Positions 4,925 through 63,276 of a DNA stretch of 64,000 nucleotides are shown here, one piece after another. Source of the stretch: Candidatus Yanofskybacteria bacterium RIFCSPHIGHO2_01_FULL_41_26 (GTDB taxonomy: Bacteria; Patescibacteriota; Minisyncoccia; 2-02-FULL-40-12; GWA2-44-9); the NCBI GenBank assembly GCA_001794055.1, contig MGJB01000001.1, positions 7,457 to 71,456 of the forward strand, read 5' to 3'. Under the pieces are notes generated by a model, which was given only the letters and a program-made list of their open reading frames with translations, did no database searches and was not told the origin of the DNA. Each line of letters begins with the position of its first letter. Position 1 is the first letter of the stretch. The position numbers and the translations under genes are program-made.

Positions 4925-5125
4925 ACCCTCACCCATTTCCGACCTATTGGATTGCGCCTCCGGTCTTCTTCGGACAAATGCTTAAGTTAATCTCAATTCA
5001 GTTAACAAATTTGGTTACCCCGTCGCAAGTTCCGACTCAAATTTGTTGAATGAACTGAATTATCAATCAATTTAAGCATTATGTTACCCTCGAAACCAAA
5101 CGGTCTGAAATGGGCTAGGTTTCGC
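4925..5125 (+). repeat. Repeat family D copy 1: ~200-nt structured element (long hairpin gcttaaNttaatctcaat...caaattt / aaatttgtt...attaatttaagc) closed by a copy-specific outer stem
   Basis: Aligns with copies at 29497-29770 and 42074-42280. The outer stem here is cccatttccgacc / ggtctgaaatggg. Confidence 0.7.
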
Positions 5126-5147
5126 TTAAATTATTTTAAGCAACCAG

Positions 5148-5312
5148 CCCGCATACCCTCAGGGAGAACTTGCGCAGGCATTTCGGCTTGCCCCCACACT
5201 CATGCATGAGTGTGGGGGCTTGGTTCTTTGAAATGCCGAGCATGGAGATGGCCGAGGCTCGCAGGAAGCCGAGGACTATCGGTCGAGTCGGGGGTATGTG
5301 GCTGGGAGGAGC
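5148..5312 (-). repeat. Repeat family B (MITE-like, 15-bp terminal inverted repeats cccagccacataccc / gggtatgtggctggg), minus orientation, with an internal 28-nt perfect palindrome insertion
   Basis: Reverse complement aligns with B copies at 15987-16123 and 62964-63099. The extra palindrome cccccacactcatgcatgagtgtggggg sits in the central loop. Confidence 0.7.
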
Positions 5313-5862: not shown

Positions 5863-5965
5863 GAAATAAGTTCCAGGCCAAAGAAGAACGTTCGCAGGCG
5901 GGTAGCCGAGAGAGAGCAAAAACCCAGCAGGGTTTTATGCGGTCTTCGTGGTCTGGGACTTATTT
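5863..5965 (+). repeat. Repeat family A copy 1 (~100 nt). Conserved core aagaagaacgttcg...ccgagatagagcaaaaa[ccc]agcag[ggg]ttttatgcggtct, closed by copy-specific outer stem gaaataagttccaggcca / tggtctgggacttatttc
   Basis: Six copies in the window (5863, 15263, 19397, 50200 rev, 51114, 57057). The inner stem covaries: ccc/ggg, ttc/gaa, ctc/gag. Confidence 0.75.
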
Positions 5966-5967
5966 CT

Positions 5968-7968
5968 TTAGATAACTTCACCCTTTAATTTTCTAATCTG
6001 TTCCTTTAGTCCCAACGCTGTTTCGTAATCCATTTTTCGGATGGCTTTATCCATCAGTTTCTGAAGCTGTTTCATGGCATTCTGTCTTGAGCCGTTGGTG
6101 AAGAAGATTATCTCATTGTTACCTTCACCGTATTTTTGAATTTCTTTCTGGCTGATCGGCAAGTCAAAATTGCCTATTTCTTTAATGATTGTTTGCGGTG
6201 TTATGCCGTTTTCTTTGTTATATTTTTCTTGTTTTTTTCGACGTCTCAGAGTTTCTTTGATCGCAAAATCAATAGACTTGGTTATTTTATCAGCGTACAT
6301 AATTACGTGGCCGTTCTCATTACGGGCTGCGCGGCCCATGGTTTGGATAAGTGTGGTTGTGTTTCTCAAAAAACCTTCTTTATCAGCATCCAATATTGCT
6401 ATTAAAGAAACTTCAGGCAAATCCAATCCTTCTCTCAAAAGGTTTACGCCAACCAGAACATCGTAATTGCCGAGACGGAGGTCTTTTATTATTTTTAATC
6501 TGTCCAATGTTTTTATTTCGGAGTGAAGATAATTGACTTTAATTTCCTGTTCGGCTAAATGTTCAGACAGGTCTTCGGCCATTCGTTTGGTAAGAGTTGT
6601 GACGATTACTCTTTCATGGTTTTTAATTCTTGCTTTGATGTTTTCTACTAAATGAGGAATTTGTCCTTCTGTTGGCCTTATTTCTATTGTCGGGTCCAAA
6701 AGGCCGGTTGGCCTGATGAGTTGTTCGGCTATTCCGTCTTTGCCAGCTTGTTCCATTTCGTATTTGGCCGGTGTGGCTGAAGTGTATATGGTTTTCTGAA
6801 TTCTTTTCTGGAATTCCGGAAATTTTAGCGGACGATTATCTATGGCTGAAGGCAATCTGAAACCGTATTCAACCAAAGTAGATTTTCGTGAATGATCGCC
6901 GGTGAACATTGAACGAAGCTGGGGAACTGTGACGTGCGACTCATCAATTATTGTCAGAAATTCTCCTTTGGAAGAAAAGAAATCCAGAAGTGAATAGGGC
7001 GGCTCGCCGGTTTTTCTGAAATCAAGATGGCGGGAGTAGTTTTCTATTCCGTGGCAGTATCCTGTTTGACGCATCATTTCAATATCTTGCCTGGTTTTTT
7101 CTTGAAGCCGGACAGCTTCCTCAAACTTTTTTTCTTTTTTCAAGTGTTTAACATGTTTCTGGAGTTCGCTTTTTATGTTTTCTATGGCTAATCCAATTTT
7201 ATCGCCTGAGGTTATCCAGTATTTGGCAGGAAAGATGGTAGTTTCAACTATTTTTTCATATTTTAAATCTTTCATTTCCAATTCTTCGGGATCAGAAATG
7301 GTGGCCTGCATAATTTTTTCAATTCGGTCGTTTTTAAACTTTATTTTAATAACTTCTTGGGCGCTTGGAGCGACTACCTCAATTTCGTTGGTTGTTTTTC
7401 TGAAACAGCCTCTTTTTAATTCTATATCCGGAACATACTGGAGCCGCAAAAGTCCCCGCACCAATTCAGACGAATTCATTTTTTTATTCTCAAATATCTG
7501 GAGACCCAAGTTTTTATAATCATCCGGTGAGCCGAGGTTGTAGATGCACGAAACGGAAGCAACAATTATTACATCATCTCGGCTGATGAGAGCTTGAGTG
7601 GCGGCATGGCGCAAGCGGTCTATCTCTTGATTTATTTTGGAATCCTTCTCTATGTAAGTATCGGTATGGGGAATATACGCTTCCGGTTGATAATAATCAT
7701 AATAGCTGACGAAATAATGAACGGCGTTTTTGGGAAAAAATTCTTTGAATTCTTTATACAACTGAGCGGCGAGAGTTTTGTTGTGAGAAATGATTAAGGT
7801 CGGTTTTTTATAATGCTCGATAATCTTGGCCATCGTAAACGTTTTACCCGAGCCGGTGACACCCAAAAGCACCTGATGCTTTTTGCCGGTTTTTAAACCC
7901 TTAGCTAATTTTTCTATTGCTTCGGGCTGATCCCCGGTGGGCTCGAATTTAGATGAAAGTTTGAACAT
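5968..7968 (-). CDS. uvrB: Excinuclease ABC subunit B
   Basis: 666-aa protein with Walker A GVTGSGKTFT, helicase motifs and a C-terminal UvrB/C interaction region. Confidence 0.95.
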   Translation of the reverse strand: MFKLSSKFEPTGDQPEAIEKLAKGLKTGKKHQVLLGVTGSGKTFTMAKIIEHYKKPTLIISHNKTLAAQLYKEFKEFFPKNAVHYFVSYYDYYQPEAYIPHTDTYIEKDSKINQEIDRLRHAATQALISRDDVIIVASVSCIYNLGSPDDYKNLGLQIFENKKMNSSELVRGLLRLQYVPDIELKRGCFRKTTNEIEVVAPSAQEVIKIKFKNDRIEKIMQATISDPEELEMKDLKYEKIVETTIFPAKYWITSGDKIGLAIENIKSELQKHVKHLKKEKKFEEAVRLQEKTRQDIEMMRQTGYCHGIENYSRHLDFRKTGEPPYSLLDFFSSKGEFLTIIDESHVTVPQLRSMFTGDHSRKSTLVEYGFRLPSAIDNRPLKFPEFQKRIQKTIYTSATPAKYEMEQAGKDGIAEQLIRPTGLLDPTIEIRPTEGQIPHLVENIKARIKNHERVIVTTLTKRMAEDLSEHLAEQEIKVNYLHSEIKTLDRLKIIKDLRLGNYDVLVGVNLLREGLDLPEVSLIAILDADKEGFLRNTTTLIQTMGRAARNENGHVIMYADKITKSIDFAIKETLRRRKKQEKYNKENGITPQTIIKEIGNFDLPISQKEIQKYGEGNNEIIFFTNGSRQNAMKQLQKLMDKAIRKMDYETALGLKEQIRKLKGEVI

Positions 7969-15029: not shown

Positions 15030-15064
15030 CTTCTCGCTCCTGCCTGATCATTTTTCAGACTTGC

Positions 15065-15247
15065 TCCCCAGCCACATACCCCCCGACTCGACCGATAGTC
15101 CTCAGTTTCAAAAGCTCAACCCTAACCCATTCTCGGGCACGGCATAAATTCTTGCTAGAATTTTGCCTCGTACTCGTTCCAGTCGAACTCCGTAAGTCCC
15201 TCTAATGGGTTAGGGTTTCGCTTTTTAGTTTTAAGTATGTGGCTGAG
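15065..15247 (+). repeat. Interrupted repeat B (5' end 15065-15102, 3' TIR remnant 15233-15247) with repeat C inserted between the halves
   Basis: ccccagccacataccccccgactcgaccgatagtcctc matches the B 5' end, and aagtatgtggctgag matches the B 3' TIR. The intervening 15110-15221 is the reverse complement of C (copy at 63121-63227). Confidence 0.6.
15110..15221 (-). repeat. Repeat family C (~110 nt, TIRs gaaaccctaacccatt / aatgggttagggtt), minus orientation, nested in a B copy
   Basis: Near-identical reverse complement of 63121-63227. Confidence 0.7.
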
Positions 15248-15262
15248 ACCTTAAATATCGTA

Positions 15263-15371
15263 AGCGAACGCCTTATTCCAAAGAAGAACGTTCGGAGGCT
15301 ACCCCGGGCCGAGATAGAGCAAAAACCCAGCAGGGTTTTATGCGGTCTGATTTGGGATGAGGCGTTCGCGA
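15263..15371 (+). repeat. Repeat family A copy 2, outer stem gcgaacgcc / ggcgttcgc
   Basis: Core identical to other A copies. Marks the left edge of the 15.05-19.5 kb island. Confidence 0.75.
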
Positions 15372-15390
15372 TTAAACAGCCATAAAAGAT

Positions 15391-15419
15391 AGGGTGATTT
15401 GACATTATTGTTTGATAAG
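15391..15419 (+). promoter_or_regulatory. Near-consensus sigma70 promoter TTGACA-17-TATAAT driving the G+C-rich ORF at 15509
   Basis: ttgacattattgtttgataagtgtataatgtaaatacg. The tataatgtaaat tail is shared with the promoter at 50947-50997 (minus). Confidence 0.6.
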
Positions 15420-15508
15420 TGTATAATGTAAATACGAGTTCAGGTTTTGTCTGGATACAGAAGCGCCAGACGAAACCCGTTAATAAAGCTTCTGAAGGAG
15501 AAAGACCA

Positions 15509-15907
15509 ATGGGGACATGGATTTTGATGGGACTCGTGGGGGTCCTCGGCGTGATTGTCGGCAGTTTGGTTCGGCGGTCAAACGCTGCCGAAATCAAACC
15601 GTTCGGGCTGGAAGCGTTCGAGGCCCACGGTCTTGGACGGGCATCCAGCGATGTCCTGAAGGCCGTCGTGGCGACCATCAGTTTTCTCGGCCATCCGTTC
15701 ACGGTGGTTGAGGAAGCTGCAGAGGCGAGGGTCTCTGCGGCAGCCAATTCGACAAGAACCTTCGCCCAGATTGAGGACAATCTGGACGAAATTCGAGATT
15801 TGGAGGCCAGGAACATCAGTCTCGAGGCTCGAGCAAGGCTTGCCGACGCTCGTGCGAGCGATCTGGCGGCTCTCGTCGCGCAGGTCAGCTCGGTCGTCGG
15901 TAGCTAG
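15509..15907 (+). CDS. G+C-rich hypothetical membrane-anchored coiled-coil protein (foreign-composition cassette P1)
   Basis: RBS gaaggagaaag, ATG, N-terminal TM (WILMGLVGVLGVIVG), and G/C-ending codon usage unlike neighbours. Terminator gaggggaagggggcaatggtgtcccacccctcTTTTTTT at 15925-15960. Confidence 0.5.
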   Translation: MGTWILMGLVGVLGVIVGSLVRRSNAAEIKPFGLEAFEAHGLGRASSDVLKAVVATISFLGHPFTVVEEAAEARVSAAANSTRTFAQIEDNLDEIRDLEARNISLEARARLADARASDLAALVAQVSSVVGS

Positions 15908-15986
15908 CCGGTGTCGTCGTGGAGGGGAAGGGGGCAATGGTGTCCCACCCCTCTTTTTTTGATTCTTAAAAGTCCGAGTCTCTCTT

Positions 15987-16123
15987 CCCCAGCCACATAC
16001 CCCCGACTCGACCGATAGTCCTCGGCTTCCTGCGAGCCTCGGCTGTCTTCATGCTCAGCCCCTCACCAAGCACCAAGCTTCGGGGCCTGCGCAAGTTCTC
16101 CCTGGGAGTATGTGGGCTTGGGA
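15987..16123 (+). repeat. Repeat family B, intact copy
   Basis: TIRs cccagccacataccc ... tatgtgggcttggg. Internal hairpin ggcctgcgcaag. Confidence 0.7.
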
Positions 16124-16198
16124 AGCTTTTAATTTTTTAAAATAGCATAAAAATTTTGGAATTGTTGACAAGTTTTATGTGGCTGATATTATTTATCT

Positions 16199-16563: not shown

Positions 16564-17130
16564 ATGTATCTATTTGCGGCATTGATCAGTGCGGTTGTCG
16601 GTGCTTTTCCACTCATGTTGGCTAGGAAGCCGGCTACTGCTATCGGGCAGTGTGTCGTGGCATTCTTTTCCAATTGGTGGCTGTTCTACGGTTTAACCAT
16701 TTCGACGGCCTATCCGCTTTTCGGAGTGGTTGGTTTCGTGACACTGATTTGGTGGTTGGTTGCGGCGACTTTTGCGTCAATCAACACAAACTCTTGGAGA
16801 AAAGAAAGCAATTCTTTTCCGTGGGCTTGGGTTTTTCCAGTAATCGGCATGGTATCCTACGTCTTCATTAGTATTGGCACTTCTGAAATGTTTCGATCGA
16901 ACGACTATGCGTCAATGCTCGGAGAAGTCGAGGAGCGGTTTTGGACGCAAGACATTCAGCCCAAAGACCCGGCTCACATGCGGATGGGCACATACGAGAA
17001 TGCCATCTATCGCGGCAAGGCAATTCAATTGTCGGTGTCCGTTTCATTCTGGGTGCTTTTCTTCTCTTTTTCTTATCTTAAAATCTTCTCTTTAATCTTT
17101 TGGCAAATTTTCGCAAAAATTGACATATAA
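16564..17130 (+). CDS. Hypothetical polytopic membrane protein
   Basis: RBS aaaggagaag then ATG. 4-5 TM helices. Terminator agccgtgctatcataaggcacggTTTT at 17132-17160. Confidence 0.5.
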   Translation: MYLFAALISAVVGAFPLMLARKPATAIGQCVVAFFSNWWLFYGLTISTAYPLFGVVGFVTLIWWLVAATFASINTNSWRKESNSFPWAWVFPVIGMVSYVFISIGTSEMFRSNDYASMLGEVEERFWTQDIQPKDPAHMRMGTYENAIYRGKAIQLSVSVSFWVLFFSFSYLKIFSLIFWQIFAKIDI

Positions 17131-17185
17131 TTAAAGCCGTGCTATCATAAGGCACGGTTTTAGTTTGTTCAAAGGAGACCAGAAA

Positions 17186-17699: not shown

Positions 17700-18650
17700 C
17701 ATGTCCCCCAAAGCCCTATTGGGCTTTTCTTTTTATCCCCAAAATCTCTGGAAACTCAACATCTTTTTTCAAGGCAACTTCTAATGGGCATTTCCCATTA
17801 AGATGTTTGAATGGCTCCTCACAATCAGTAAAAGATTTGGTTCTTCTCCTTATCATCCAAGCATTTAGCCATCTTTCAGCCGAGTGGAAACCCTGGAAGC
17901 CTTTAACGCTTTTTAATCTGGCTTGTAGGTGAGAATTGTAGCTCTCAATGATATTGGTCGTATTAGGGCATTGCTGTCTAAACTGAGCATTAAAAGCCCC
18001 CTTTAACTCGTAGAAGAAATCATGATATTTTTCCTCGGTTCTAATTCTGAGCATTTGTCTTAAAATCTCAAAGTAATGGTTATGGCATAATTGTATCGGA
18101 ACTGTCGGATAAATCTGTTTTAGAGCTGGTTTTAAAGCACCGGATGTCATCGGCTATCACAATCTGAAGAGGATAGCGGACAGTATGAAGCAAATTAAAG
18201 AATTTATTGAAAGCCCATTCATTTTCACTGGGAGCTAAAACACCGACTGGTATATCGTGGCTTAGATAATCAATGCCGTAGATAAAAGGTATTTTCTTAT
18301 CATAGCCCTTAACTTTTACATATTTCCCATCAACAACTAATCTACCTGACCACCGATTACAGTATTCTCTTGATAGCCAAGTATTTTCTGGCAACTTATT
18401 CATTTCGTCTTCTACTTGTCTAAAAACTCTGGCTGGAGATGTGCTATACTGGTCAGCCAGTTTTCTGAATGGAACTCCGTCAATATGCGGTATCCAAAAG
18501 ATTGGTTTTACTCTGTGGTCTATTGAAAAAGAATGCTTTTGTTTCTTACAGAAAAATCTTTTTAATCCTTTTCTACTTCCTTTCTTAATTGTTTTATTAC
18601 TGCCGCAGACTGGGCATTTTGGGTTCTTTTTTTAGTCATAATACCCAATT
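17700..18650 (-). mobile_element. IS6 (IS26)-family insertion sequence, approximate ends not defined
   Basis: Transposase with VDGKYVKVKG...YGIDYLS and NIIESYNSHL...GFQGFHSAERWL motifs (IS6-family DDE signatures) plus an N-terminal CPVCG...C zinc ribbon. Clear TIRs could not be identified by eye. Confidence 0.6.
17716..18640 (-). pseudogene. IS6-family transposase split over three frames: leader MTKK at an A7 run, zinc-ribbon+DDE N-part, DDE C-part
   Basis: First shift at atgactAAAAAAAg (a -1 slip gives KNPKCPVCG...). Second shift at ttAAAAcc, where one fewer A restores ...CFKPALKQIYP. Either programmed slippage or homopolymer indels. Confidence 0.55.
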
Positions 18651-18804
18651 TAACATGTTAATTGAGAATGTAATCCTTTACAGATAGCAAAATTGGGTGC
18701 TTGATAGCACCCAATTTGAAACGGTCTCGTTGTACAACGTATTAGGCTTGCCGACTGCCGTTGTGCCGCTCCTTAACAGTCAGCACGCGTTCCAGGGTGT
18801 AGCG

Positions 18805-19314
18805 ATGGTTCCCATCAACGACTTCCAATTGTTTGCCGTCGGGACCAACGCACACGAATCCCAGCGCGCTTACGAGAAAATGCTTTCGGAGCGTGACCAG
18901 AGAGTGGCCATTGAAGCCAAGAGGGATATTCAGCATATTGAAGGCGTCGTAGCTCGTGCCAGCAGCGAGACGCTCCAGGCAGGGACGACGTACTATCTCT
19001 ATCTGGAAAACGTTCCGCATCTGTTCACGGCCGGTCCCGGCCTTTCAAGCAAGCTCATCGTGACCAGGCCGGGAGACAAGGTCAAGATCGGGTTCTACGC
19101 ATCAGACAAGGACGTGGTCCCGATGTCGGAGTTTGATAATTTGTCCCTCCCGCTTTCCAAAAGCGTTTTGCAGGGAAAAGTCGAATCTTCTGCGACCGAA
19201 CATCGATCTCAAGAAGAAGCGACAGAGGATGCCAAAACCGTTCTGGAGCGAATGAAGAACTTGACTCCCAAGGAACTTCAGGAGCTTGGCAAGAAAGTTC
19301 CGCCGAAAAAGTAA
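18805..19314 (+). CDS. G+C-rich hypothetical protein (foreign-composition segment), start uncertain (frame open from 18697)
   Basis: Sharp rise in G+C from ~18760. ORF with G/C-rich third positions. Hairpin terminator ccggcatttgccgg at ~19330. Confidence 0.4.
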   Translation: MVPINDFQLFAVGTNAHESQRAYEKMLSERDQRVAIEAKRDIQHIEGVVARASSETLQAGTTYYLYLENVPHLFTAGPGLSSKLIVTRPGDKVKIGFYASDKDVVPMSEFDNLSLPLSKSVLQGKVESSATEHRSQEEATEDAKTVLERMKNLTPKELQELGKKVPPKK

Positions 19315-19396
19315 TTCAAACTAAGCCCGGCATTTGCCGGCAACCCCGCATCTCGCTGGGCCTTTTATTTATTTAAAGTTTAAAAAATTGGAGAGC

Positions 19397-19492
19397 GAGG
19401 CCTTGTCTCAAAGAAGAACGTTCGGAGGCCGACGGGCCGAGATAGAACAAAAACTCAGCAGAGTTTTATGTGGTCTGATTTGGGATAAGGCC
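19397..19492 (+). repeat. Repeat family A copy 3 (variant core aaaactcagcagagtttt), outer stem ggccttgtctca / tgggataaggcc
   Basis: Same orientation as the copy at 15263. Together they bracket the 15.3-19.5 kb island. Confidence 0.7.
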
Positions 19493-19539
19493 GAGTGACA
19501 GGTTGTGTGAACCATTAAAATTAGTTATTATAAAAATAT

Positions 19540-26293: not shown

Positions 26294-27646
26294 ATGGTGT
26301 TTGTGAGAAAATTCGAACAATTTTTATTTTATTTTCTGCTTTTTGCAATTCCGTTTCAGACGCGGAAGATTTTGTGGCATCAAAATTGGAATTTTAATGA
26401 GTGGCAGTCGATATCTATCTACGGTACGGATATTTTATTACTCATTCTTTTCGGATTCTGGATTTTTGACTTAATTAATCCGAAGATAGAGCCACCTGTG
26501 GATAACCGACTTCGCAAGTCGGTTATCCACAGGTTTGTTAAGAGACATGATTACTTTTTGTTTGTCTTGATTGTCGTCTCAGCTATTTCGATTAAAAACT
26601 CTTCCAGCTATATTCTAAGCACCTATAGTGTTTTGAAACTCGTAGAATTTGTTGTCTTTTATTTCTATATCAAAAGTTATGCGGTTTATAAGTTCGGCTT
26701 GATAAGGTCAATGATTGTTTTGATTTACGGAGGATTATTTCAGGCGATAATTGCTATTCTGCAGTTTTTTAAACAATCAAGTTTAGGTTTAGGATTGTTG
26801 GGGGAAAGTGTTATTAGTCCCAATCTGACCGGCATTGCTTCTTTTTATAATATGGCGGGAGAAAAGATAATCCGCACCTATGGAACGACGCCCCACCCTA
26901 ATGTTTTGGCCGGATATTTATTTTTGGCAATTTTTGCTTTTTATTATCTCTGGATTTATAAAAACATAAGCAAGTTTTTCTTGCTTATGTATGGATTAAT
27001 TATTTTGGCTTTCTTTTTTACTTTTGCCCGGGTAGCAGTATTTCTTTTGTTTATAAATTTTCTAGTTAGAATCATTTTAGTGCATTTAAAATTTAAGAAA
27101 GAATACTGGAATAAGAAGTTAGCTTTACTGTCCGTAGTAACGGTTGTTGTTGCTACATCTCTCTTTTTGATTTATTGGTCCGAGACGGTCAGTCGGGTTA
27201 TGATTTCTTCCAAAGAAGAGGCGGTTCAAATGAGGATTTTTTACAATAAGGAATCTTTGAGTTCCTTGAACTGGTTTGGTGTCGGTTCGGGTAACTTTGT
27301 CAATTGGCTTATGGTCAAAGATCCCAATTTACCGCGTAATCTTTATCAACCGGTGCACAATATCTACCTCTTGGTTTATTCGGAAACGGGAATTTTGGGC
27401 ATCTCTGCTTTCCTCATGTTTCTGTTGTTTTTGATCAAAGATTTTGTATTGCGGACACGCATGAAAAATCTTTATAACTATTCGTTTCTTCTTATCTTTC
27501 TCTCGGTTTTATTTATGGGACTTTTTGACCATTTTTTGTTGACGCTTCAGCAGGGGAGGTTTATTTTTTGGTTAACAGTTATGCTCTTGACTATTAATCG
27601 CAAAGATGATATAATGATTAAACAACAGTCAGAACCGACCGCATAG
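26294..27646 (+). CDS. O-antigen ligase / Wzy-like polymerase family membrane protein
   Basis: ~12 TM helices with the HNIYLLVYSETGILG motif of the O-antigen ligase family. Carries the in-frame palindromic insert at 26499-26537. Confidence 0.65.
   Translation: MVFVRKFEQFLFYFLLFAIPFQTRKILWHQNWNFNEWQSISIYGTDILLLILFGFWIFDLINPKIEPPVDNRLRKSVIHRFVKRHDYFLFVLIVVSAISIKNSSSYILSTYSVLKLVEFVVFYFYIKSYAVYKFGLIRSMIVLIYGGLFQAIIAILQFFKQSSLGLGLLGESVISPNLTGIASFYNMAGEKIIRTYGTTPHPNVLAGYLFLAIFAFYYLWIYKNISKFFLLMYGLIILAFFFTFARVAVFLLFINFLVRIILVHLKFKKEYWNKKLALLSVVTVVVATSLFLIYWSETVSRVMISSKEEAVQMRIFYNKESLSSLNWFGVGSGNFVNWLMVKDPNLPRNLYQPVHNIYLLVYSETGILGISAFLMFLLFLIKDFVLRTRMKNLYNYSFLLIFLSVLFMGLFDHFLLTLQQGRFIFWLTVMLLTINRKDDIMIKQQSEPTA
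26499..26537. repeat. 39-nt perfect hairpin made of two inverted DnaA-box-like 9-mers (cTGTGGATAAccgacttcgcaagtcggTTATCCACAg), in frame inside a CDS
   Basis: Identical stem at 50374-50412 with the loop inverted. Encodes PVDNRLRKSVIHR in the host ORF. Confidence 0.65.
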
Positions 27647-27665
27647 AGCGGTCAAGGAGGCAACG

Positions 27666-27917
27666 ATGCAGGTTCCGTGCCCCTTCAGAGGGGATCACTT
27701 CATTGTCCAGGGTCGTATGCACAGCCCCAGTCAGTGCCCGCCGGTACCCGGCGAGCGTGGCGATCATCGCCGTCGTAAGCGGCTTCGCAAGAAGCATGCC
27801 AAACGTGCGGCGGAATTCATGGTCCGCCGTGGCGAAGCCGTCGCGGGGACTGGTAAGCCGTCGGCCAGCTCCAGCGAGAAAGCCGGAGTGAAAAACAAGC
27901 TGAAAGTGGGGTTGTGA
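27666..27917 (+). CDS. G+C-rich small basic protein (cassette with RBS aaggaggc)
   Basis: RBS, ATG, and R/K-rich 83-aa product. The frame choice in G+C-rich DNA is uncertain. Confidence 0.3.
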   Translation: MQVPCPFRGDHFIVQGRMHSPSQCPPVPGERGDHRRRKRLRKKHAKRAAEFMVRRGEAVAGTGKPSASSSEKAGVKNKLKVGL

Positions 27918-28117
27918 TGAGCATCAATCGTCGGATGTTGAGAAAGTCGTTGGGTACCCGGCATGCTCGTCGGGAGGGCACCAAGACGAAGGCCATCCGG
28001 GGAACGGGTGGCGGCACGAACCAACGGGTCAACAAGTACCGTTGGTTCAAAAAGTCGCGGGCGGCGGTTCGCCCGAGCGTTCTGCTCGAGCGACTGATTC
28101 GTCAAGCGATAGCCTAG
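27914..28117 (+). CDS. G+C-rich small highly basic protein, start overlapping upstream stop (gtgATGa)
   Basis: 67 aa, very R/K rich. Followed by terminator ggggcggcgatgagccgcccccaaTTTTTT (28128-28166). Confidence 0.3.
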   Translation: MMSINRRMLRKSLGTRHARREGTKTKAIRGTGGGTNQRVNKYRWFKKSRAAVRPSVLLERLIRQAIA

Positions 28118-28208
28118 AAATCGGCACGAAGGGGCGGCGATGAGCCGCCCCCAATTTTTTCAAGCGGAGCATTTGCTCCCTTTTTTAATTTAAATTAGAA
28201 TAAAGTTT

Positions 28209-29496: not shown

Positions 29497-29770
29497 CCCG
29501 CCCCCATTCTCGGCCTGTTGGATTACGGCCTCCGGATCTCCTGGAGGCGATTCCAGGGCTGGCTAAAGCACAGCCCTAAAACCTTCTCCTTGACGGACAA
29601 ATGCTTAAACTAACCTTCAATTTGCTTAACAAATTTAAGCATCCGTTCCTCCCCGCCAGCTGGCGGGGATTTTCCGGCTAAGATTTATTGAATAAGCAGA
29701 TTATCAATTAATTTGAGTATTATGTTACCCTCGAAACCAAAAGGTCTTAAATAAGCGGGCTTTGCTTGTT
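29497..29770 (+). repeat. Repeat family D copy 2 (central loop replaced by hairpin cctccccgccagctggcggggatt)
   Basis: Aligns with 4925-5125 and 42074-42280. Located directly after the DedA stop codon. Confidence 0.7.
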
Positions 29771-42073: not shown

Positions 42074-42280
42074 AGCGAAGGCCTGAATCATTTTCTCACC
42101 GTTGACTTTCTTCGGACAAATGCTTAAATTAATCTCAATTTGCTTAACAAATTTTAGCATCCGTTCCTCCCTAAGGGGATTTTCCGGCTAAAATTTGTTG
42201 ATTAAGCAAATTATCAATTAATTTAAGCATTGTGTTACCCTCGAAACCAATAGGTTCTAAAATGACTAAGGCCTTCGCTT
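42074..42280 (+). repeat. Repeat family D copy 3, outer stem aagcgaaggcct / aggccttcgctt
   Basis: Aligns with D1 and D2. The central loop hairpin is cctccctaaggggatt. Confidence 0.7.
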
Positions 42281-49739: not shown

Positions 49740-50198
49740 ATGGATAATCAATATTTTAGTAAAGAAGGATTAGAAAAATTAAAAAAAGAACTGGAAGAAC
49801 GACTTAATGTTTTGCGTCCGGAAATAGCCCAGCGCATCAAAGAAGCCAAGGAATTGGGCGATCTGTCCGAAAACGCGGAATATGATTCGGCAAAAGAAGC
49901 TCAAGCGTTGAATGAAGGCAGAATGGAAGACATAAGAAACACTCTTGAAAATGCTGTAATTATAACCGGAAATAACACTAGCGGAACTATTGGTGTTGGC
50001 TCAAGTATTAAAGTAGAGTCTAACACCGGAGTTCGCTCTTTCGTAATTGTCGGCGCCGCTGAATCCGATCCGGCCAAAGGGTTTATTTCAAATGAATCTC
50101 CGTTAGGTCAGGCATTTCTAGGACACAAAAAAGGGGACAAAGTTGAAGCAAGAACCCCGAAAGGAATAGTTGAATATAAAATAGTCGAGGTGAATTAG
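49740..50198 (+). CDS. greA: Transcription elongation factor GreA
   Basis: Coiled-coil N-domain with the acidic tip motif LSENAEYD plus a C-terminal FKBP-like domain. Confidence 0.9.
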   Translation: MDNQYFSKEGLEKLKKELEERLNVLRPEIAQRIKEAKELGDLSENAEYDSAKEAQALNEGRMEDIRNTLENAVIITGNNTSGTIGVGSSIKVESNTGVRSFVIVGAAESDPAKGFISNESPLGQAFLGHKKGDKVEARTPKGIVEYKIVEVN

Positions 50199-50199
50199 T

Positions 50200-50303
50200 C
50201 GCGAACGCCTCATCCCAAATCAGACCGCATAAAACCCTGTTGGGTTTTTGCTCTCTCTCGACTACCCACCTGCGAACGTTCTTCTTTGGAATAAAGCGTT
50301 CGC
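50200..50303 (-). repeat. Repeat family A copy 4 (minus orientation), outer stem gcgaacgcctcatccca / tggaataaagcgttcgc
   Basis: Reverse complement of the A core. Inverted relative to the copy at 51114, bracketing cassette P2. Confidence 0.75.
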
Positions 50304-50373
50304 TATGATATAAATTAATAAGCATGAAAAATAGGCCCCGTTGCGGGGCCTTTTGGCGTCTCTTTTCGTTTGC

Positions 50374-50412
50374 CTGTGGATAACCGACTTGCGAAGTCGG
50401 TTATCCACAGCT
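50374..50412. repeat. Second copy of the DnaA-box-like hairpin (cTGTGGATAAccgacttgcgaagtcggTTATCCACAg)
   Basis: Same stems as 26499-26537 with the 7-nt loop inverted, implying insertion in the opposite orientation. Confidence 0.65.
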
Positions 50413-50429
50413 GGTTCGTTGACGTTGGC

Positions 50430-50894
50430 CTAGAGGGTCAGGCCGGGGCCGTGGAACTCCATCATCAGCGGGAGGTCCCGTCGGACGATGTCCAGCTTCG
50501 CCTTGGCGTCGATGAAGTGCTCTTCGGCTGTGGTGACCTCGACCATGATGATCTCAATCATCGCTTTGATCATTGCTTTGGCCGCGTCGACTCCGAGGGT
50601 TTCGACCGCATCATGCGGTTCGACACCTTCGATGACCTCGAGCTTCTTCTTGAGGCCGTCGAGCGCCGCCTCGGCACTGGCGAGCTTGCTCTTGGCCTCG
50701 GCGAGCTCTTGCTCGTACCGTTCGTTGAGCGGGATGGCCCGCTCGTCGATGTTCAGGCCGATCAGGGCGCCGCCCTGACGGTGGAGGTGGCGGGTGTGGG
50801 AGCGCTTGTTGCTCCCCTCGCCGATCGTCACCGTGATCTGCTTGCCACCCTTGCTGTTCTCTCTGGTCGATGTGACCGTGTATTTCAGTGCCAT
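50430..50894 (-). CDS. G+C-rich hypothetical protein (cassette P2)
   Basis: Minus-strand RBS gaaggagacagccacATG. High-GC codon usage. The opposite-strand ORFs here are composition artefacts. Confidence 0.5.
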   Translation of the reverse strand: MALKYTVTSTRENSKGGKQITVTIGEGSNKRSHTRHLHRQGGALIGLNIDERAIPLNERYEQELAEAKSKLASAEAALDGLKKKLEVIEGVEPHDAVETLGVDAAKAMIKAMIEIIMVEVTTAEEHFIDAKAKLDIVRRDLPLMMEFHGPGLTL

Positions 50895-50946
50895 GTGGCT
50901 GTCTCCTTCGTCCCCCGCGTTTAGCGGGGTTTACGGACTGACCGGA

Positions 50947-50997
50947 TTGTCAGTGAACGTAATTTACATTATAGCATACTTTTGACCACTTTGTCAA
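50947..50997 (-). promoter_or_regulatory. Near-consensus sigma70 promoter (minus strand) TTGACA-18-TATAAT for cassette P2
   Basis: Minus strand reads ttgacaaagtggtcaaaagtatgctataatgtaaattacg. Closely related to the promoter at 62281-62310. Confidence 0.6.
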
Positions 50998-51113: not shown

Positions 51114-51236
51114 GCGGAGGGAGACACCTTTATCCCAAAGAAGAACGTTCGGAGGCTACCCCGGGCCGAGATAGAGCAAAAATTCAGTAGAATTTTATGC
51201 GGTCTTCGTGGGATGAAGGCGTCTCCCTCCGTATGC
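51114..51236 (+). repeat. Repeat family A copy 5 with 22-bp outer stem ggagggagacacctttatccca / tgggatgaaggcgtctccctcc
   Basis: Core variant aaaattcagtagaatttt. Precedes lysS. Confidence 0.75.
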
Positions 51237-54614: not shown

Positions 54615-55357
54615 TGCGTCGGCATCGCCGGGCTTTTGTTTTGAAGATTGTTATAGTAGTGCTTGGGACGGTTGCCGTTGTGGCTGGAATAATTTATCTT
54701 TTGTTCTTTTCGAGGATGTTTGATGTCAGGGAGGTGAGTTTTAACGGTTTAGATACTGTAAGTTCAGATGTGTTTCGGACAAAAATAGAAGGAAATTTGA
54801 GTCAAAATCTACTCTCATATTTGCCTCGAAGAAACAATCTCTTTTTTGTGGGGGTTGGTGATTTTGAAAAAGAATTTGCCTCGGAATACCCAGTTTTTAA
54901 ATCGGTGAATGTCCAAAGGAAACTTCTTCATGGTTTGGTATTAAATTTTTTGGAAAGAAAACCAGTTGGTGTGTGGTGTTTCAAAAATGATTGCTATTAT
55001 TTTGATGAGGAGAAAGTTCTTTGGGGCCAGCCAGCCAAATCATCCGGCTTCATATTTCTGACAATAGAGGACGACAGACAAAACGAGAGCAAAAAAATAG
55101 ATGGCGACTTTTTTAGGCCAATAATGGAAATTGCAAAAAAAATGCCCGGAGAAATAAAAAATATAGTAATACCAGCAGGCTCATTTAACGAATTTCGTGT
55201 TTATACTGCTGATTACTATATTGCTTTTACTACGGACTCTGATGTTCAAAATCAGCTAGCTACCTTGAAGATATTCATGAATGACAAAAAGGGTGATCTT
55301 GATTTCCATCCACAATACATTGACTTAAGAATTGATGGGAGGGTTTATTATAAATGA
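54615..55357 (+). CDS. ftsQ: FtsQ/DivIB-like cell division protein (TM + POTRA-like)
   Basis: Basic N-terminus MRRHRRAF, single TM, periplasmic beta domain. Located upstream of murB. Confidence 0.55.
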
Positions 55358-56361
55358 TTATTAAGGAAAATGTGATTTTGGCGCCGTATACGACTTTTAA
55401 AATTGGTGGGCCGGCGAGATATTTTTGCGAGGTCGGGAATATTATTGAATTTCGCGAAGCGTTAAAATTTTCAAAAGAAAACAATCTGCGGTTCTTCATC
55501 TTAGGCGGAGGAAGCAATATTTTATTTTCTGGCAAAGGGTTTAGCGGGTTGGTTATAAAAATGGAGATTAAAGGGTTGAAATTCAAAGATGATAAAGATT
55601 ATTCAATCTTGATTGCCGGAGCTGGGGAAAGTTGGGATGATGTGGTTGAAAAAGCGGTTGAAAGAAATTTGGGCGGTATAGAAAATTTGTCGTTGATACC
55701 TGGCACGGCCGGGGGCGCAGTTTGTCAGAACATCGGCGCTTATGGTGTGGAGTTAAAAGATGTCTTGTTGGGTGTTGAAGTATTTGATGCAAAGTCTGGA
55801 GGAATTAAGACTTTTTTTAACAAAGATTGTCATTTTGGGTATAGAGATAGTGTTTTTAAAAACCGCGATGATTTAGTTATTTTGAAAGTGGATCTTAAAC
55901 TATTGAAAAATCTTGAACCAAATATTAAATATCCAGACCTTGTTAAATTTTTTGAAAATGTTACCCCGTCGATAGTTGGTGTTAGACAGGCGGTTATTAA
56001 TATTAGAAAGAAAAAATTGCCCTACCCATCTGAAGTCGGAAATGCGGGTTCGTTTTTTAAAAATCCAATTATAGAAATGTCCGGTTATCAATTTCTAATT
56101 TCTAAACACTCTGATTTAAAAGGGTACGATATGGGTAGTGGTTGGGTAAAACTTTTAGCCGGACAGCTTATAGAAAAATGTGGTTGGAAAGGGAAACAAC
56201 TGGGAAATGTTGGAGTGTCCGATAAGCACTCCCTAGTTTTGGTTAATTACGGAAATGGAACAGCGGAAGAAGTAATCCATTTTTCGGAGGAGATTAAAAG
56301 ATCGGTAAAAGATAGATTTGGAATAGAGTTAGAGCCGGAGGTGGAGGTTGTTGACAATTGA
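55354..56361 (+). CDS. murB: UDP-N-acetylenolpyruvoylglucosamine reductase
   Basis: FAD-binding domain (LGGGSNILF) and C-terminal MurB domain. Confidence 0.9.
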   Translation: MIIKENVILAPYTTFKIGGPARYFCEVGNIIEFREALKFSKENNLRFFILGGGSNILFSGKGFSGLVIKMEIKGLKFKDDKDYSILIAGAGESWDDVVEKAVERNLGGIENLSLIPGTAGGAVCQNIGAYGVELKDVLLGVEVFDAKSGGIKTFFNKDCHFGYRDSVFKNRDDLVILKVDLKLLKNLEPNIKYPDLVKFFENVTPSIVGVRQAVINIRKKKLPYPSEVGNAGSFFKNPIIEMSGYQFLISKHSDLKGYDMGSGWVKLLAGQLIEKCGWKGKQLGNVGVSDKHSLVLVNYGNGTAEEVIHFSEEIKRSVKDRFGIELEPEVEVVDN

Positions 56362-56381
56362 GTTTCAATTTGCTATAATGG
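56352..56381 (+). promoter_or_regulatory. Consensus sigma70 promoter TTGACA-17-TATAAT overlapping the murB 3' end
   Basis: ttgacaattgagtttcaatttgctataat. Confidence 0.55.
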
Positions 56382-56387
56382 ATAGAC

Positions 56388-56958
56388 AATAAGTTCTTTA
56401 CATATCGGGTCCTTAACTGGGCTCGAAAAAAGCCAGCAAATACCTCGAAATCTAGGCATTCAAGTAAGATATATTTGGCCTTAAAGGATGTAAACATTTG
56501 TGGAGTATTAATTTAAGTAGTTCTCAAGTTGTTAGTAATTTGCTGGTTTTTTTCGGGCTCTGTTAGTGGAGCCAAAGAATCGACAGAGGCTACGTTGCGC
56601 GGAGGGTTCGGAGGGTGCTCCGATCGCCAGTGATCCGCGACGTTGTTCCTCTGTCGAGTGCGGGAGTGGAGCCGGCGGGGAAGCCCCGGCAGTTCAACAG
56701 CCACACCGCAAACCTGGCCGGAGAATGGTGGATAACTCCGGGTCTCGCGTTGTTTCCAGCCAGGCGCTGGTGCGCGGGATTTTCAACCACTCGGGGGAGG
56801 CGCATCGCCTCCCCCCGTCTCGACTCACCGTGCGAGGTAGCATGCATGCACCGCCGTCGTCGCCGTCGTGGGGTGGCACAGGTCCGAAGAACCTGTAAGC
56901 CACAATAACCGAACGACCGCCTCGTCAGGGTTTCCCCTGACGAGGCGCTTTTTTATTT
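56388..56958 (+). ncRNA. Candidate ~570-nt structured non-coding RNA of unknown class (AT-rich 5' third with 23-nt long-range pairing, G+C-rich 3' two-thirds, intrinsic terminator)
   Basis: Promoter directly upstream. 56417-56443 pairs with 56537-56565. Multiple GC-rich hairpins. No RBS or convincing ORF. Terminator cgcctcgtcagggtttcccctgacgaggcgcTTTTTTATTT at 56918-56958. Confidence 0.45.
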
Positions 56959-57056
56959 AAAATTATGCTCAACCCTCCCCATTTTTGAGCATCGTGTTAT
57001 CTTCGGAGGTAAACGGTCTGCAAATGGAGAGGGGTTTCTCTGGCCTTTTTGTTGAA

Positions 57057-57160
57057 GCGACACCTTCATCCCAAAGAAGAACGTTCGGAGGCTACCCTGG
57101 GCCGAGATAGAGCAAAAATTCAGTAGAATTTTATGCGGTCTTCGTGGGATGAGGTGGCGC
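57057..57160 (+). repeat. Repeat family A copy 6, outer stem gcgacaccttcatccca / tgggatgaggtggcgc
   Basis: Core as in copy 5. Confidence 0.75.
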
Positions 57161-57190
57161 TGAAATTCTAGGTAAAGCAAAGTTTAATAA

Positions 57191-58942
57191 TTAAGGATTA
57201 ATTTTCCAGACGAAGATGGAATTGCCGATAACTTTAATTGGTTGATAGTTGGTAAGCCAGCCGTAATTTTTGTCAGTGGCGAGGGACTGTTGATAGAACG
57301 TTGCCGATACAGCGATATATCCGCCGGTCGGATTATCTGACATGAATTGGTCTTTAGTTTTGTATTTTTCGCTTGTCATCCAATAAAATTTATTACCCAA
57401 ATAATATGATTGATCAGCCCAGCCGAAATAATCAAGACTAATTTTTTTAATATCATTTCTATCAACCCAATCAGCCAGACGCTTTAAGTCTTGGCCCCAG
57501 TCAAGGTTTGAATCAACAACATATCTGTAACCGCCGGTTGGTCCGCCGGCTATTTGATTAAAATAAGTCAAGTAATAAGGAAAGATTATGATTGTTTCGG
57601 CCAATAACCAGGCACACAGAGTGCTTACGAAGACCAGATATACCCTCTTTGCCTTAACGCGTTCATAAAGAACGGATAGTTGACCCGCAACAAGAATGGC
57701 TGTACCACCATAGACTGGGATTAGATGTCTGATCCCAATATTTAAATTGGCGTTGATACTGATAATCCAATAAAAAAGCGCCCAGGAGAAGATGGCTGTT
57801 TCTGCGAAATGGATTCGCAGCCAGTTTTTCAGGCGCCGTTCTTTGGTGCGGGCATTTATAAAAAATGCGATTGTCGCGATGATAAAGAGTATTAAAAATG
57901 GAATTGGTTCTTTCAGGGCATAAATAACTGGAAAATATGATTTTACTGCTGTTTGATAAACGTTGCCCAAAAAGTAGGTTTGATTGCCGCCGACATTTCT
58001 TTGAAAAATCATCAACACCCCAAGACTGTATTGAGCAAATGGACGAAGTAAGGGTTTATCCGATGCCCATATAACAGGATCGGCAAAAAGCCGATTACCG
58101 TAAGAACCTAAAATAACAGCTGCATCCGCTTTTTGTTTTTCTCCGCTGTAATTTAAAAGATGCAATTGAAATATCGGACCGACAATGAATGCAAAACCAA
58201 CAATAATTATCAGAACTGCCTTCCAGGCCATGCTGATCATTCCCGATAATTTGTGCTGATTGGCGTATGCCCATATGACAGCCAGAAAGACGAGCAGGGG
58301 AATCAATAAGAATGCTGAAAACTTGGTTAGTTGACCGAGACCGAAAACAATCGCAGCCAACCAAAAGTTTTTGTTCCGCCAGCCGGCAGATTGATTTTCA
58401 AAATAGCGTTCAAAAAAATACAGTGTCGCTATAATGCCGGCGAGGAGAGCGATGTCAGTGGTAACTAGCCGGGAATGGGCAATAACGGTAGGAGTAAAAG
58501 AAAATAAGAATATCGCCAGAAGCGCAGCTTTGTCACCGAATAATTTTTTGGTCCAGACAAAAATTATCCATGCCGAAATAATAAAGAATAACAACATCGG
58601 CAGTTTGGCCGCGCGAACCAAAGTGATGGCATCGTTGCCTGTTTGGAAGATCAGGGCTCGGCCGAAATTCCATTGACCGTTCACGTCAGTTGGCCAGTTA
58701 GTGGGATATTTTTGAGAAAAGGCGCTTTGGTTTAGATTGAAAGGCAGCAAAGCCAATCCGGCCAGATCTTTAGCCAGTGGCGGGTGCTCCGGATTGAACT
58801 GATAGCTATGCTGGACGACATATGAATAACCGGCGCCGATGTGGGGAATTTCATCAACAACAGGCGAGTCATTCCAACCACTTGTAATTGCCAAGATGGT
58901 AGCCGAAGCAATTATTAGGAATGCTGTTAATTTGATTTTCAT
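57191..58942 (-). CDS. GT-C superfamily glycosyltransferase (PMT/ArnT, GT39/GT83-like)
   Basis: N-terminal DE motif loop (VVDEIPH) and HPPLAK motif typical of the PMT/ArnT family. ~12 TM helices. Confidence 0.65.
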   Translation of the reverse strand: MKIKLTAFLIIASATILAITSGWNDSPVVDEIPHIGAGYSYVVQHSYQFNPEHPPLAKDLAGLALLPFNLNQSAFSQKYPTNWPTDVNGQWNFGRALIFQTGNDAITLVRAAKLPMLLFFIISAWIIFVWTKKLFGDKAALLAIFLFSFTPTVIAHSRLVTTDIALLAGIIATLYFFERYFENQSAGWRNKNFWLAAIVFGLGQLTKFSAFLLIPLLVFLAVIWAYANQHKLSGMISMAWKAVLIIIVGFAFIVGPIFQLHLLNYSGEKQKADAAVILGSYGNRLFADPVIWASDKPLLRPFAQYSLGVLMIFQRNVGGNQTYFLGNVYQTAVKSYFPVIYALKEPIPFLILFIIATIAFFINARTKERRLKNWLRIHFAETAIFSWALFYWIISINANLNIGIRHLIPVYGGTAILVAGQLSVLYERVKAKRVYLVFVSTLCAWLLAETIIIFPYYLTYFNQIAGGPTGGYRYVVDSNLDWGQDLKRLADWVDRNDIKKISLDYFGWADQSYYLGNKFYWMTSEKYKTKDQFMSDNPTGGYIAVSATFYQQSLATDKNYGWLTNYQPIKVIGNSIFVWKINP

Positions 58943-62280: not shown

Positions 62281-62310
62281 TTGACAAAGTGGTGGCAAGT
62301 ATGCTATACT
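62281..62310 (+). promoter_or_regulatory. Near-consensus sigma70 promoter TTGACA-18-TATACT for cassette P3
   Basis: ttgacaaagtggtggcaagtatgctatact. The first 12 and last 11 nt are shared with the P2 promoter. Confidence 0.6.
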
Positions 62311-62390
62311 TGACTTACACAACGGAATGAATGTGAGATAGACCCTTGTCAACCAAGCTCCTGAAAAGGGGCACAACGAAAGGTAGAAAA

Positions 62391-62846
62391 ATGAATCCAC
62401 GCATTGTCGGCGTCGGCGCTCTCATCGCGGTTCTGTGCCTAGCCATCCTGGCGATTCTCGTGGGCTTCGGCGGCGACCGCGCGTCGGCCCTCCCGCAGGG
62501 TCCGACCGACCTCGTTGTTTATCAGGCCTATCAGGTCGCCGACTTTCGGTCGTGCAAGCTGGCGGACGGTTCGCTGGCGACGGAGTGGCATTTCGGCGGA
62601 GCGGATCGCTCGCGCCGAAATCAGCTGACGCCGGCGCTGGACGGCCGCGGCCGTCCGATCTTCCGGGTCGTGACGAACAATAGGAATCTCCCGGCTGGCC
62701 ACATGCGTTTGCGCATGGTGGCCGAAGCCGACCCGACACTCGAGGGCTTCAAATACGGCGACTATTCCTGGAATGGGATTGTCGTCGAGTACAACGGCCG
62801 CGTCGAGGACCAGCGGATCGTCGGTCCCTGCGGACCGGACCGCTGA
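62391..62846 (+). CDS. G+C-rich hypothetical secreted/membrane-anchored protein (cassette P3)
   Basis: ATG after gaaaggtagaaaa. N-terminal TM/signal (IVGVGALIAVLCLAILAILVG). Terminator hairpins at 62893-62947. Confidence 0.5.
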   Translation: MNPRIVGVGALIAVLCLAILAILVGFGGDRASALPQGPTDLVVYQAYQVADFRSCKLADGSLATEWHFGGADRSRRNQLTPALDGRGRPIFRVVTNNRNLPAGHMRLRMVAEADPTLEGFKYGDYSWNGIVVEYNGRVEDQRIVGPCGPDR

Positions 62847-62963
62847 AGGCCGACATCGCGCTTGCCCTGAGCTCGTCGAAGGGTACAATCGCCCCGGAGG
62901 GCGGAACCAGAAATCTTGGTTCCGCTCCTCTGGAGGCGGTTTTTTAATATTTGTCCAGATTCG

Positions 62964-63099
62964 CCCCCAGCCACATACCCCCGACTCGACCGATAGTTGA
63001 TTTGTTCCAGCGACAAATCACTATCTACATGCTCGGCATTTCGAAGAACCAAGCCGAAATGCCTGCGCAAGTTCTCCCTGTGGGTATGTGGACTGGGGG
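62964..63099 (+). repeat. Repeat family B copy
   Basis: TIRs cccagccacataccc / gggtatgtggactggg. Internal hairpin ggcatttcgaagaaccaagccgaaatgcc. Confidence 0.7.
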
Positions 63100-63120
63100 C
63101 TCTTAATTAATTAAGCCAAA

Positions 63121-63227
63121 GCGAAACCCTAATCCGTTAGAGGGACTTACGGAGTTCGGCGGAACGAGTACGAGGCAAAATTCCAGTCAGGAATTTATGC
63201 CGTGCCCGAGAATGGGTTAGGGTTGAG
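63121..63227 (+). repeat. Repeat family C copy (plus orientation)
   Basis: TIRs gaaaccctaatccgtt / aatgggttagggttgag. Reverse complement of 15110-15221. Confidence 0.7.
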
Positions 63228-63276
63228 CGCAACTTGTGGAATATTAGTTTTTGTTTTTATGTTACAATAAATACAT

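Follow-up and report, generated by a model that had tools for sequence, protein, structure and literature searches.

The locus between murB and the PMT gene

We analysed a 64,000-nt stretch of the Candidatus Yanofskybacteria bacterium RIFCSPHIGHO2_01_FULL_41_26 genome (contig MGJB01000001.1, positions 7,457 to 71,456, hereafter the window), in which an earlier sequence-only reading had picked out, at 56352-56958 downstream of murB, a possible large noncoding RNA (ncRNA) of about 570 nt; the segment analysed is 56386-56955 on the + strand. murB occupies 55354-56361 (+), with its stop codon at 56359-56361, and on the far side of the segment lies a convergent gene for a PMT-family glycosyltransferase (hereafter the PMT gene). 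Comparison with homologous loci indicates that the segment is very probably the gene of a structured ncRNA, belonging to a family with no catalogued match, in Candidatus Yanofskybacteria and related groundwater Parcubacteria of the candidate phyla radiation (CPR).

The promoter that the reading had reported across the murB stop codon lies at 56351-56379 (+) and matches the sigma-70 consensus at 12 of 12 positions, a match unique within the 3 kb scanned. It consists of a −35 TTGACA (56351-56356) which overlaps the final murB codons and the stop, a 17-nt spacer, an extended −10 TG (56371-56372) and a −10 TATAAT (56374-56379). Sequence conservation begins directly after the −10, and a promoter of the form TTGACW-17-TGnTATAMT is found at the same position in at least ten homologues. 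At the other end, the canonical intrinsic terminator also noted before (56918-56958, +) consists of a T-run preceded by a 13-bp stem (56918-56947) in which 10 pairs are G-C, and it is kept in two homologous loci, L059 and L088, with both strands of the stem altered. Placing the start 7 nt past the −10 and the end within the U-run of the terminator gives a predicted primary transcript of about 570 nt (56386-56955, +). The segment has its own transcription signals on one strand, as expected of a structured ncRNA gene, and the consensus promoter suggests high constitutive expression of the RNA. G+C content is 0.59-0.67 across 56550-56950, against a window mean of 0.41.

The reading had offered, as its other possibility, a G+C-rich cassette that has lost its open reading frame (ORF). 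Five other G+C-rich promoter-to-terminator units in the window encode orphan small proteins and the region contains stop-free stretches of 110, 97 and 85 codons, both of which would fit a decayed cassette of this kind (a pseudogene) or a gene for a small protein, but stretches of 85-110 codons are expected at 65 % G+C and the region carries no other mark of coding. By codon position, G+C stays flat at 0.57-0.72 and keeps to no one phase, there is no periodicity at the third codon position (GC3), and the sole GGAG (56568-56571) is followed 7 nt later by AUC, which is no start codon, so that no ORF preceded by a ribosome-binding site (RBS) is present, as the reading had found. When codon usage was modelled on the window's six G+C-rich ORFs, each of the six scored positive under leave-one-out (+0.08 to +0.44 bits per codon), whereas 56566-56910 is negative in all six frames, the best frame reaching −0.14 bits per codon. 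The segment thus has none of the features of the cassettes, namely an RBS-preceded ORF, the order GC3 > GC1 > GC2 and cassette codon usage, and a Pfam search of the ORFs of the region gave no match. Among homologues the distances between conserved anchors take all residues modulo 3, which rules out a conserved reading frame, and the part conserved most strongly, the A+U-rich 5′ one, has only short stop-free stretches in whichever frame (32-72 codons). As the element is also single-copy and syntenic and its helices are compensated between homologues (see below), we reject a decayed cassette or small-protein gene as highly improbable.

Homologues and synteny

Four MurB relatives (63-73 % identity) were traced to their contigs, and three of the four keep the arrangement murB-gap-PMT(−), with a gap of 835-1373 nt that contains no called gene or a spurious one. 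These three gaps align to that of the window in blocks of 72-93 % nucleotide identity and share with it the promoter, the leader, the closing stem of the 5′ domain and several G+C-rich blocks. Searching metagenome contigs with the pattern AGGCATTCAAGTAAN{0,4}ATATTT, taken from the near-invariant internal segment described below, returned 35 loci, of which 19 were homologous (15 distinct) and the remainder chance matches inside genes. Together with the three MurB-traced relatives this gives 18 distinct homologues, or 19 sequences with the window; the homologues are metagenomic loci from Candidatus Yanofskybacteria-like Parcubacteria with MurB proteins 40-73 % identical. The gene order serS-ftsQ-like-murB-RNA-PMT(−) is kept although MurB falls to 40-58 % identity. 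Since promoter, position and pairing are all retained while housekeeping proteins are only 40-73 % identical, the RNA is under selection.

Beyond these loci, a profile of the 5′ domain found no copy in L058, the MurB relative in which another gene lies downstream, nor in the non-CPR MurB loci or viral contigs. Scans of viral contigs with the 5′ motif, the pseudoknot motif and the Rep-A repeat (see below) gave chance matches inside protein genes or nothing, and the unit had no BLAST match in phage and plasmid collections. In a species-representative genome collection the MurB relatives came only from Bacteroidota and Proteobacteria (36-48 % identity, one locus 24 %), with no CPR genome among them. 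Among the contigs listed, ten with an identical MurB are 100 % identical to the window apart from one 1-nt difference; these are the same population and so provide no variation for comparison. The contigs of eight independent assemblies of this population (L003-L010) end at eight positions in or just past the G+C-rich domain, equivalent to 56547, 56674, 56682, 56801, 56808, 56826, 56882 and 57152 in the window, and because all the sequence that they contain is identical this looks like a failure of coverage or assembly at the G+C-rich hairpins, rather than strain variation.

The constant position of the RNA between convergent genes, with its last terminator abutting the PMT stop codon in several relatives, could also be read as a cis element, either a long structured 3′ untranslated region of murB or a zone of buffering or termination between murB and the PMT gene. 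An element of that kind would not need the conserved promoter of its own, it would not be expected to persist where murB is missing, as the RNA does in L077 and L079, and in the window itself 230 nt of unrelated repeats separate the terminator of the RNA from the PMT gene. A buffer zone would furthermore leave the invariant unpaired sequence and the covarying pseudoknot unexplained, and a cis element is in our view very improbable.

Within the family the RNA is shortest in L079, at about 430 nt, and reaches a total of about 900 nt. Modules are gained, lost and expanded between lineages, and those outside the 5′ part form a mosaic. Mobile elements have inserted into the RNA in several relatives. 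An insertion sequence-like element of about 1.6 kb, 83-88 % identical to window positions 17035-17185 and 17725-18728, splits the RNA in L077; a 45-nt hairpin mini-element (CUCGGAGUGGUUUCRUGGCGGUGCKUWAGCCCGCCGAGGAACUCUGU) is found at different sites in L057 (~1385-1430) and L060 (~6143-6190); a hairpin of about 40 nt (CUGGGAGUGCGCCGUGCUUUAGCCGGCAWAGCUCUCUCU) has entered the leader of L060, L067 and L087; and an A+T-rich element of about 190 nt lies within the 5′ hairpin of L066 (~770-960) and L091. From the mosaic and the insertions together, the 3′ half is open to change, with the 5′ domain as the apparent core of the RNA. A conserved extra 3′ module occupies the last ~110 nt before the end of the PMT gene in L057, L060, L062, L067, L080 and L087, with the sequence GGGCGGUUGGAAAYUUAGCGGGGAAGCCCGCGGUA...GGUGUGCGAUACACCUUCC followed by the terminator CAGGCCUnnnGGGCCUG; it has no Rfam match, is absent from the window RNA and may either belong to the RNA or be a small RNA in its own right.

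As the genome is rich in repeats, with Rep-A and a Rep-C-like element immediately downstream of the RNA in the window and mini-elements inserted in the RNA of relatives, the segment might alternatively be a pile of selfish repeats that has built up between genes where insertion is tolerated, whether of palindromic elements or of miniature inverted-repeat transposable elements (MITEs). Neither the window nor any locus contains a second copy of any part of 56386-56958, however; the element is single-copy in the window and in each homologous locus, always in the same syntenic slot, and does not form the multiple dispersed copies expected of a MITE or dispersed repeat. Its single copy sets it apart from MITEs and from decayed G+C-rich cassettes alike, and with the order of modules and the promoter conserved across distant relatives we reject this explanation, the least probable of those that we weighed.

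The 5′ leader and 5′ domain

The predicted RNA opens with a leader (56391-56412, +) of AAGUUCUUUACAUA followed by CGGGUCC. AAGUUCUUUACAUA is invariant in a four-sequence alignment (A1), and AAGTTCTTTACATA is the leader sequence invariant among the window and the gaps of the MurB-traced relatives; in a second clade the leader region carries AAGUACCUUUUAUA. Two helices that would involve the leader were considered and rejected, one between leader CUUUACA and the UGUAAG tail of the ACAGG hairpin, the pairing of which is lost in L079, and one between leader GGGUCC and a downstream GGGCCC, which is mismatched in the window and in L088.

The leader is followed by the 5′ domain (56419-56560, +), a long hairpin shared more widely among family members than any other part. 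It is closed by the 23-nt long-range pairing that the reading had observed, 56419-56441 with 56538-56560, which occurs nowhere else in the window, where chance would give 0 matches, and whose three apparent mismatches are all G·U pairs when read on the + strand; the abundance of G·U pairs, which would be C·A on the opposite strand, fixes the + strand as the transcribed one. In homologues a closing stem of 19-23 bp surrounds an invariant loop, AUCYAGGCAUUCAAGUAAGAUAUUU. The near-invariant internal segment to which this belongs lies at 56450-56480 (+) in the window (AUCUAGGCAUUCAAGUAAGAUAUAUUUGGCC), has invariant columns across 17 sequences, and measures 25-31 nt across the family; AGGCATTCAAGTAA is common to the window and the MurB-traced relatives. 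A CCAAAGA(U)G junction recurs in most sequences.

Over 19 bp and 17 sequences the closing stem is 99.1 % paired, compared with 32-62 % in slid controls, four pairs change on both sides (A-U/U-A, G-C/A-U, C-G/U-A), and its covariation score was reached by none of 500 shuffles. An nhmmer profile of the domain finds one copy in every homologue in which the domain is intact, with E-values of 1e-21 to 1e-35, and split or partial matches in L066 and L091, where the A+T-rich element is inserted (partial in L091). Leader and 5′ domain are common to the 18 homologues with an intact 5′ part.

Hairpins and pseudoknot of the G+C-rich part

The run of G+C-rich hairpins described from the window sequence (56580-56589/56648-56657, 56793-56815 and 56881-56897) is borne out, and each of its members falls within a larger structure that recurs in the family. 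The first closes a long three-part hairpin (56579-56657, +) formed by AUCGACAGAGG and CCUCUGUCGA. As AUCGGCAGnnn...nnnCUGCCGA it is present in eight homologues, with inner triplets that covary, a G-to-A change in the window is offset by C-to-U on the other strand, and in the general form AUCGRCAG...CUGYCGA the hairpin recurs across the family with compensatory changes. Next to it stands a hairpin of the form GCGG-GA-GUGG ... CCAC-A-CCGC (56660-56709, +), which has a conserved internal loop and a variable apical part in seven sequences and, as GCGG-GUGG/CCAC-CCGC, likewise shows compensatory changes.

A predicted pseudoknot domain (56718-56815, +) follows, built from the helices Pa (56718-56741, with loop AAUGGUGGAUAA), Pb (56743-56779) and Pc (56793-56815). 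After Pb comes a linker, UUUUCAA, and the CCACU at 56787-56791, inside CAACCACUC at 56784-56792, pairs with the loop of Pa. A profile of this H-type pseudoknot domain matches ten distinct sequences including the window. Across them 92 % of cells are paired over 29 pairs (35-54 % in slid controls), and 19 of the 29 pairs change on both sides, compared with 6.2 ± 1.8 in shuffles, none of 500 of which reached this number. In L091 the pseudoknot pairing GGUGG/CCACU is replaced by AUGAUGG/CCAUCAU, a compensating change. The alignment used here (A4) was made by cutting the helix segments by hand and joining them with artificial A/T spacers, as a MAFFT alignment (A3) had misaligned the domain, and its covariation numbers are supportive, not a formal test.

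The last of these structures, a hairpin with the form GGUGGC-ACAGGU..ACCUGU-AA-GCCAC (56872-56903, +), is found in eight sequences of both clades, with a sixth pair that is U-A, A-U or G-C and an outer stem that is GUGGC/GCCAC or GGAGC/GCUCU; as ACAGGN...NCCUGU-AAGCC it recurs with compensatory changes. Base pairing is therefore maintained by compensation across homologues in the 5′ stem, in the pseudoknot domain and in further hairpins. The proposal of a novel large ncRNA thus held up, in that sequence, promoter and position are conserved, helices covary, no coding frame is conserved and no Rfam family matches.

Several points weigh against this interpretation. The ends of the transcript and its abundance are predictions from sequence. 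One clade has no pseudoknot core and carries a GGUCACGCCAGCCACC...GGGGACCGAAUGGCGUGACC hairpin in its place, and the 3′ half is not universal, which, with the insertion inside the RNA of L077, means that part of the molecule is dispensable. Because the pseudoknot alignment was hand-fitted to the proposed helices, its pair counts lean toward the structure; L060 and L091, which diverge most, moreover supply part of its covariation signal, and the relatedness of the sequences inflates the significance given by the shuffle controls. Folding energy by itself is weak evidence, since the value for the whole unit (z = −8.8) derives mostly from the 5′ hairpin and the terminator, and the G+C-rich core alone reaches z = −2.9, folding no better than the comparable G+C-rich coding units of the window (−1.0 to −6.2). 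Finally, the function discussed below is a guess by analogy with OLE, raiA, ROOL and GOLLD.

Comparison with known RNA families

By eye, the reading had been unable to match the element to RNase P, transfer-messenger RNA (tmRNA), signal recognition particle (SRP) RNA or 6S RNA, and a scan with all of Rfam 15 (4227 families), which covers these together with OLE, ROOL, GOLLD, raiA, HEARO, riboswitches, ribozymes and group I and II introns, likewise gave no match at gathering score in the 64-kb window or in 16 homologous loci (130 kb). At E ≤ 10 there were only unrelated low-score matches in 56200-57300 and in L087. ARAGORN found no transfer RNA (tRNA) and no tmRNA in the window, of which 56386-56955 is the only RNA gene identified. 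A literature search found, within the library covered, no large ncRNA of Patescibacteria, Parcubacteria or the CPR and no mention of the invariant motif.

A known housekeeping RNA too diverged for Rfam would most likely be a 6S-like 5′ hairpin, failing which RNase P, SRP RNA or tmRNA. Measuring 140-200 nt, the 5′ domain is indeed a long, irregular hairpin, and its extended closing stem and sizeable internal loop loosely recall 6S RNA, which is likewise a stand-alone, promoter-to-terminator RNA. The present RNA differs from 6S in that the molecule extends 350-900 nt past the 5′ hairpin, in that the family RNA is 3-5 times longer, in that only one strand of the internal loop has an invariant sequence, and in that the 6S models do not match. 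For the SRP RNA, the hairpin at 56872-56903 (ACAGGUCCGAAG...) shares a heptamer with helix 8 as it stands in the E. coli 4.5S sequence. Helix 8 of the SRP RNA has non-canonical loops, whereas this stem is fully Watson-Crick and covarying, and the assignment was rejected. The P4 motif of RNase P (AGGAAAGUCC / ACAGAA..GGCUUA) is absent from the RNA. With none of the 4227 families matching any of 17 loci, nothing relevant at E ≤ 10 in two representatives and no tmRNA by ARAGORN, a diverged housekeeping RNA is very improbable, if least so for the 5′ hairpin.

The known RNAs closest in character are the large ornate ones. OLE (ornate, large, extremophilic; ~600 nt, Firmicutes) shares with the window RNA a length of about 0.6 kb, a stand-alone gene, many hairpins, strictly conserved unpaired stretches and a restriction to a single lineage of bacteria. 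OLE functions within a membrane-associated ribonucleoprotein (RNP) (PMC9723947, PMC10898510), and the window RNA adjoins membrane-protein genes (PMT-family glycosyltransferases); a membrane association of the window RNA would be pure speculation. The two have no similarity in sequence or by covariance model, no partner genes like oapA/B/C were identified for the window RNA, and unlike OLE it has a CPR host and a 3′ half that is modular and partly dispensable. The raiA, ROOL and GOLLD RNAs resemble it in being abundant or large, discovered by comparative genomics and of unknown biochemical function, and in having ornate folds with pseudoknots and variable expansion segments. ROOL, GOLLD and OLE assemble into RNA-only homo-oligomers (PMC12286853) and raiA has a conserved architecture (PMC12968392). 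None of the raiA, ROOL and GOLLD models matches the window RNA, which, unlike ROOL and GOLLD, has no association with phages or tRNA clusters and no viral copy found, and occupies a fixed chromosomal position.

Possible functions

Given a structured ncRNA, the molecule would be stable, independently transcribed and acting in trans as RNA. Our first, tentative guess, by analogy with these large RNAs, is a scaffold for an RNP, which we rate at less than even but ahead of any other single role. In such a scaffold the stretches that are unpaired and near-invariant, namely the internal segment of the 5′ domain and the linkers of the pseudoknot, would be surfaces for binding or tertiary contacts and the variable G+C-rich hairpins structural expansions. 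As a second guess, the pseudoknot core might have a catalytic or ligand-binding role; a ribozyme or ligand-binding RNA is unlikely, a sponge or 6S-like regulator rather more so, and a role outside these categories has a somewhat better chance than either while still being doubtful. The fixed place between murB and the PMT-family glycosyltransferase gene raises a possible tie to biogenesis of the cell envelope, but as gene order is kept throughout the block in this lineage, such a setting among genes for the cell wall and glycosyltransferases is no more than a lead. We lean slightly towards regarding the family as the first large (0.45-0.9 kb), ornate, lineage-specific ncRNA class described for the CPR (Patescibacteria), with a conserved 5′ recognition domain and a pseudoknotted ribozyme or RNP core, possibly linked to the envelope.

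The known classes of large structured ncRNA in bacteria number, to our knowledge, no more than about a dozen, and RNase P, tmRNA, OLE, GOLLD, ROOL and raiA are each biochemically unusual. CPR genomes are minimal, at roughly 1 Mb, and their biology is poorly understood. If the interpretation is true, an RNA gene of this size retained in a genome of ~1 Mb should matter, and it offers a testable handle, as a covariance model can be built and the size of the RNA suits cryo-electron microscopy. Enrichment cultures of Yanofskybacteria have been published, one with metatranscriptomes (PMC9600506, PMC10936435).

Other G+C-rich units and repeats in the window

Islands of high G+C in A+T-rich CPR genomes mark RNA genes and puzzling G+C-rich orphan protein genes alike. 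The window has five units of the latter type (~60-69 % G+C), at 15399-15960 (+), ~18700-19340 (+), 27587-28160 (+), 50327-50997 (−) and 62281-62945 (+). Four of the five have promoters of the TTGACA/TTGACT-17-TATAAT type, some of which overlap the end of the upstream gene, and none was identified for the 18.7-kb unit. In all five, small orphan ORFs that match nothing in Pfam and show clear GC3 periodicity are accompanied by an RBS and a strong terminator, and the folding of the mRNAs is unusually stable, with z as low as −6.2. The 154-aa ORF at 50430-50894 has ~15 homologues, and in L097 it occupies the same greA-X-asnS slot, with 64 % G+C (GC3 0.84) and the same promoter, so that the G+C-rich units are resident genes of anomalous composition, not recent imports.

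The G+C-rich units are followed by structured repeats. Rep-A is a hairpin repeat of ~100 nt in six copies (5878-5960, 15266-15375, 19400-19495, 50195-50289 (−), 51123-51222 and 57057-57160), usually just past a terminator, one of them directly 3′ of the window RNA. It has an imperfect outer stem of 18-20 bp and an inner stem that is compensatory between copies (AAAAUUCAGUAGAAUUUU vs AAAACCCAGCAGGGUUUU vs AAAACUCAGCAGAGUUUU). Rep-A has no Rfam match and its exact core is absent from the viral contigs scanned; a MITE-like element and a small RNA are both candidate identities, and its identification as an integron attC site was rejected as it has no R′/R″ boxes. Rep-B (5140-5310 (−), 15060-15110, 15985-16130 and 62960-63100) is G+C-rich with an outer stem of CCCCAGCCACAUACCCC / GGGUAUGUGGNCUGGGG. 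Rep-C (15114-15224 and 63118-63228 (−)) has AACCCUNNCCCAUU / AAUGGGNNAGGGUU ends with variable content between them, and related Rep-C-like elements lie at 4925-5125, 29589-29751, 42108-42261 and 56967-57040. Rep-B and Rep-C are structured intergenic repeats, the order and orientation of which vary around the G+C-rich units.

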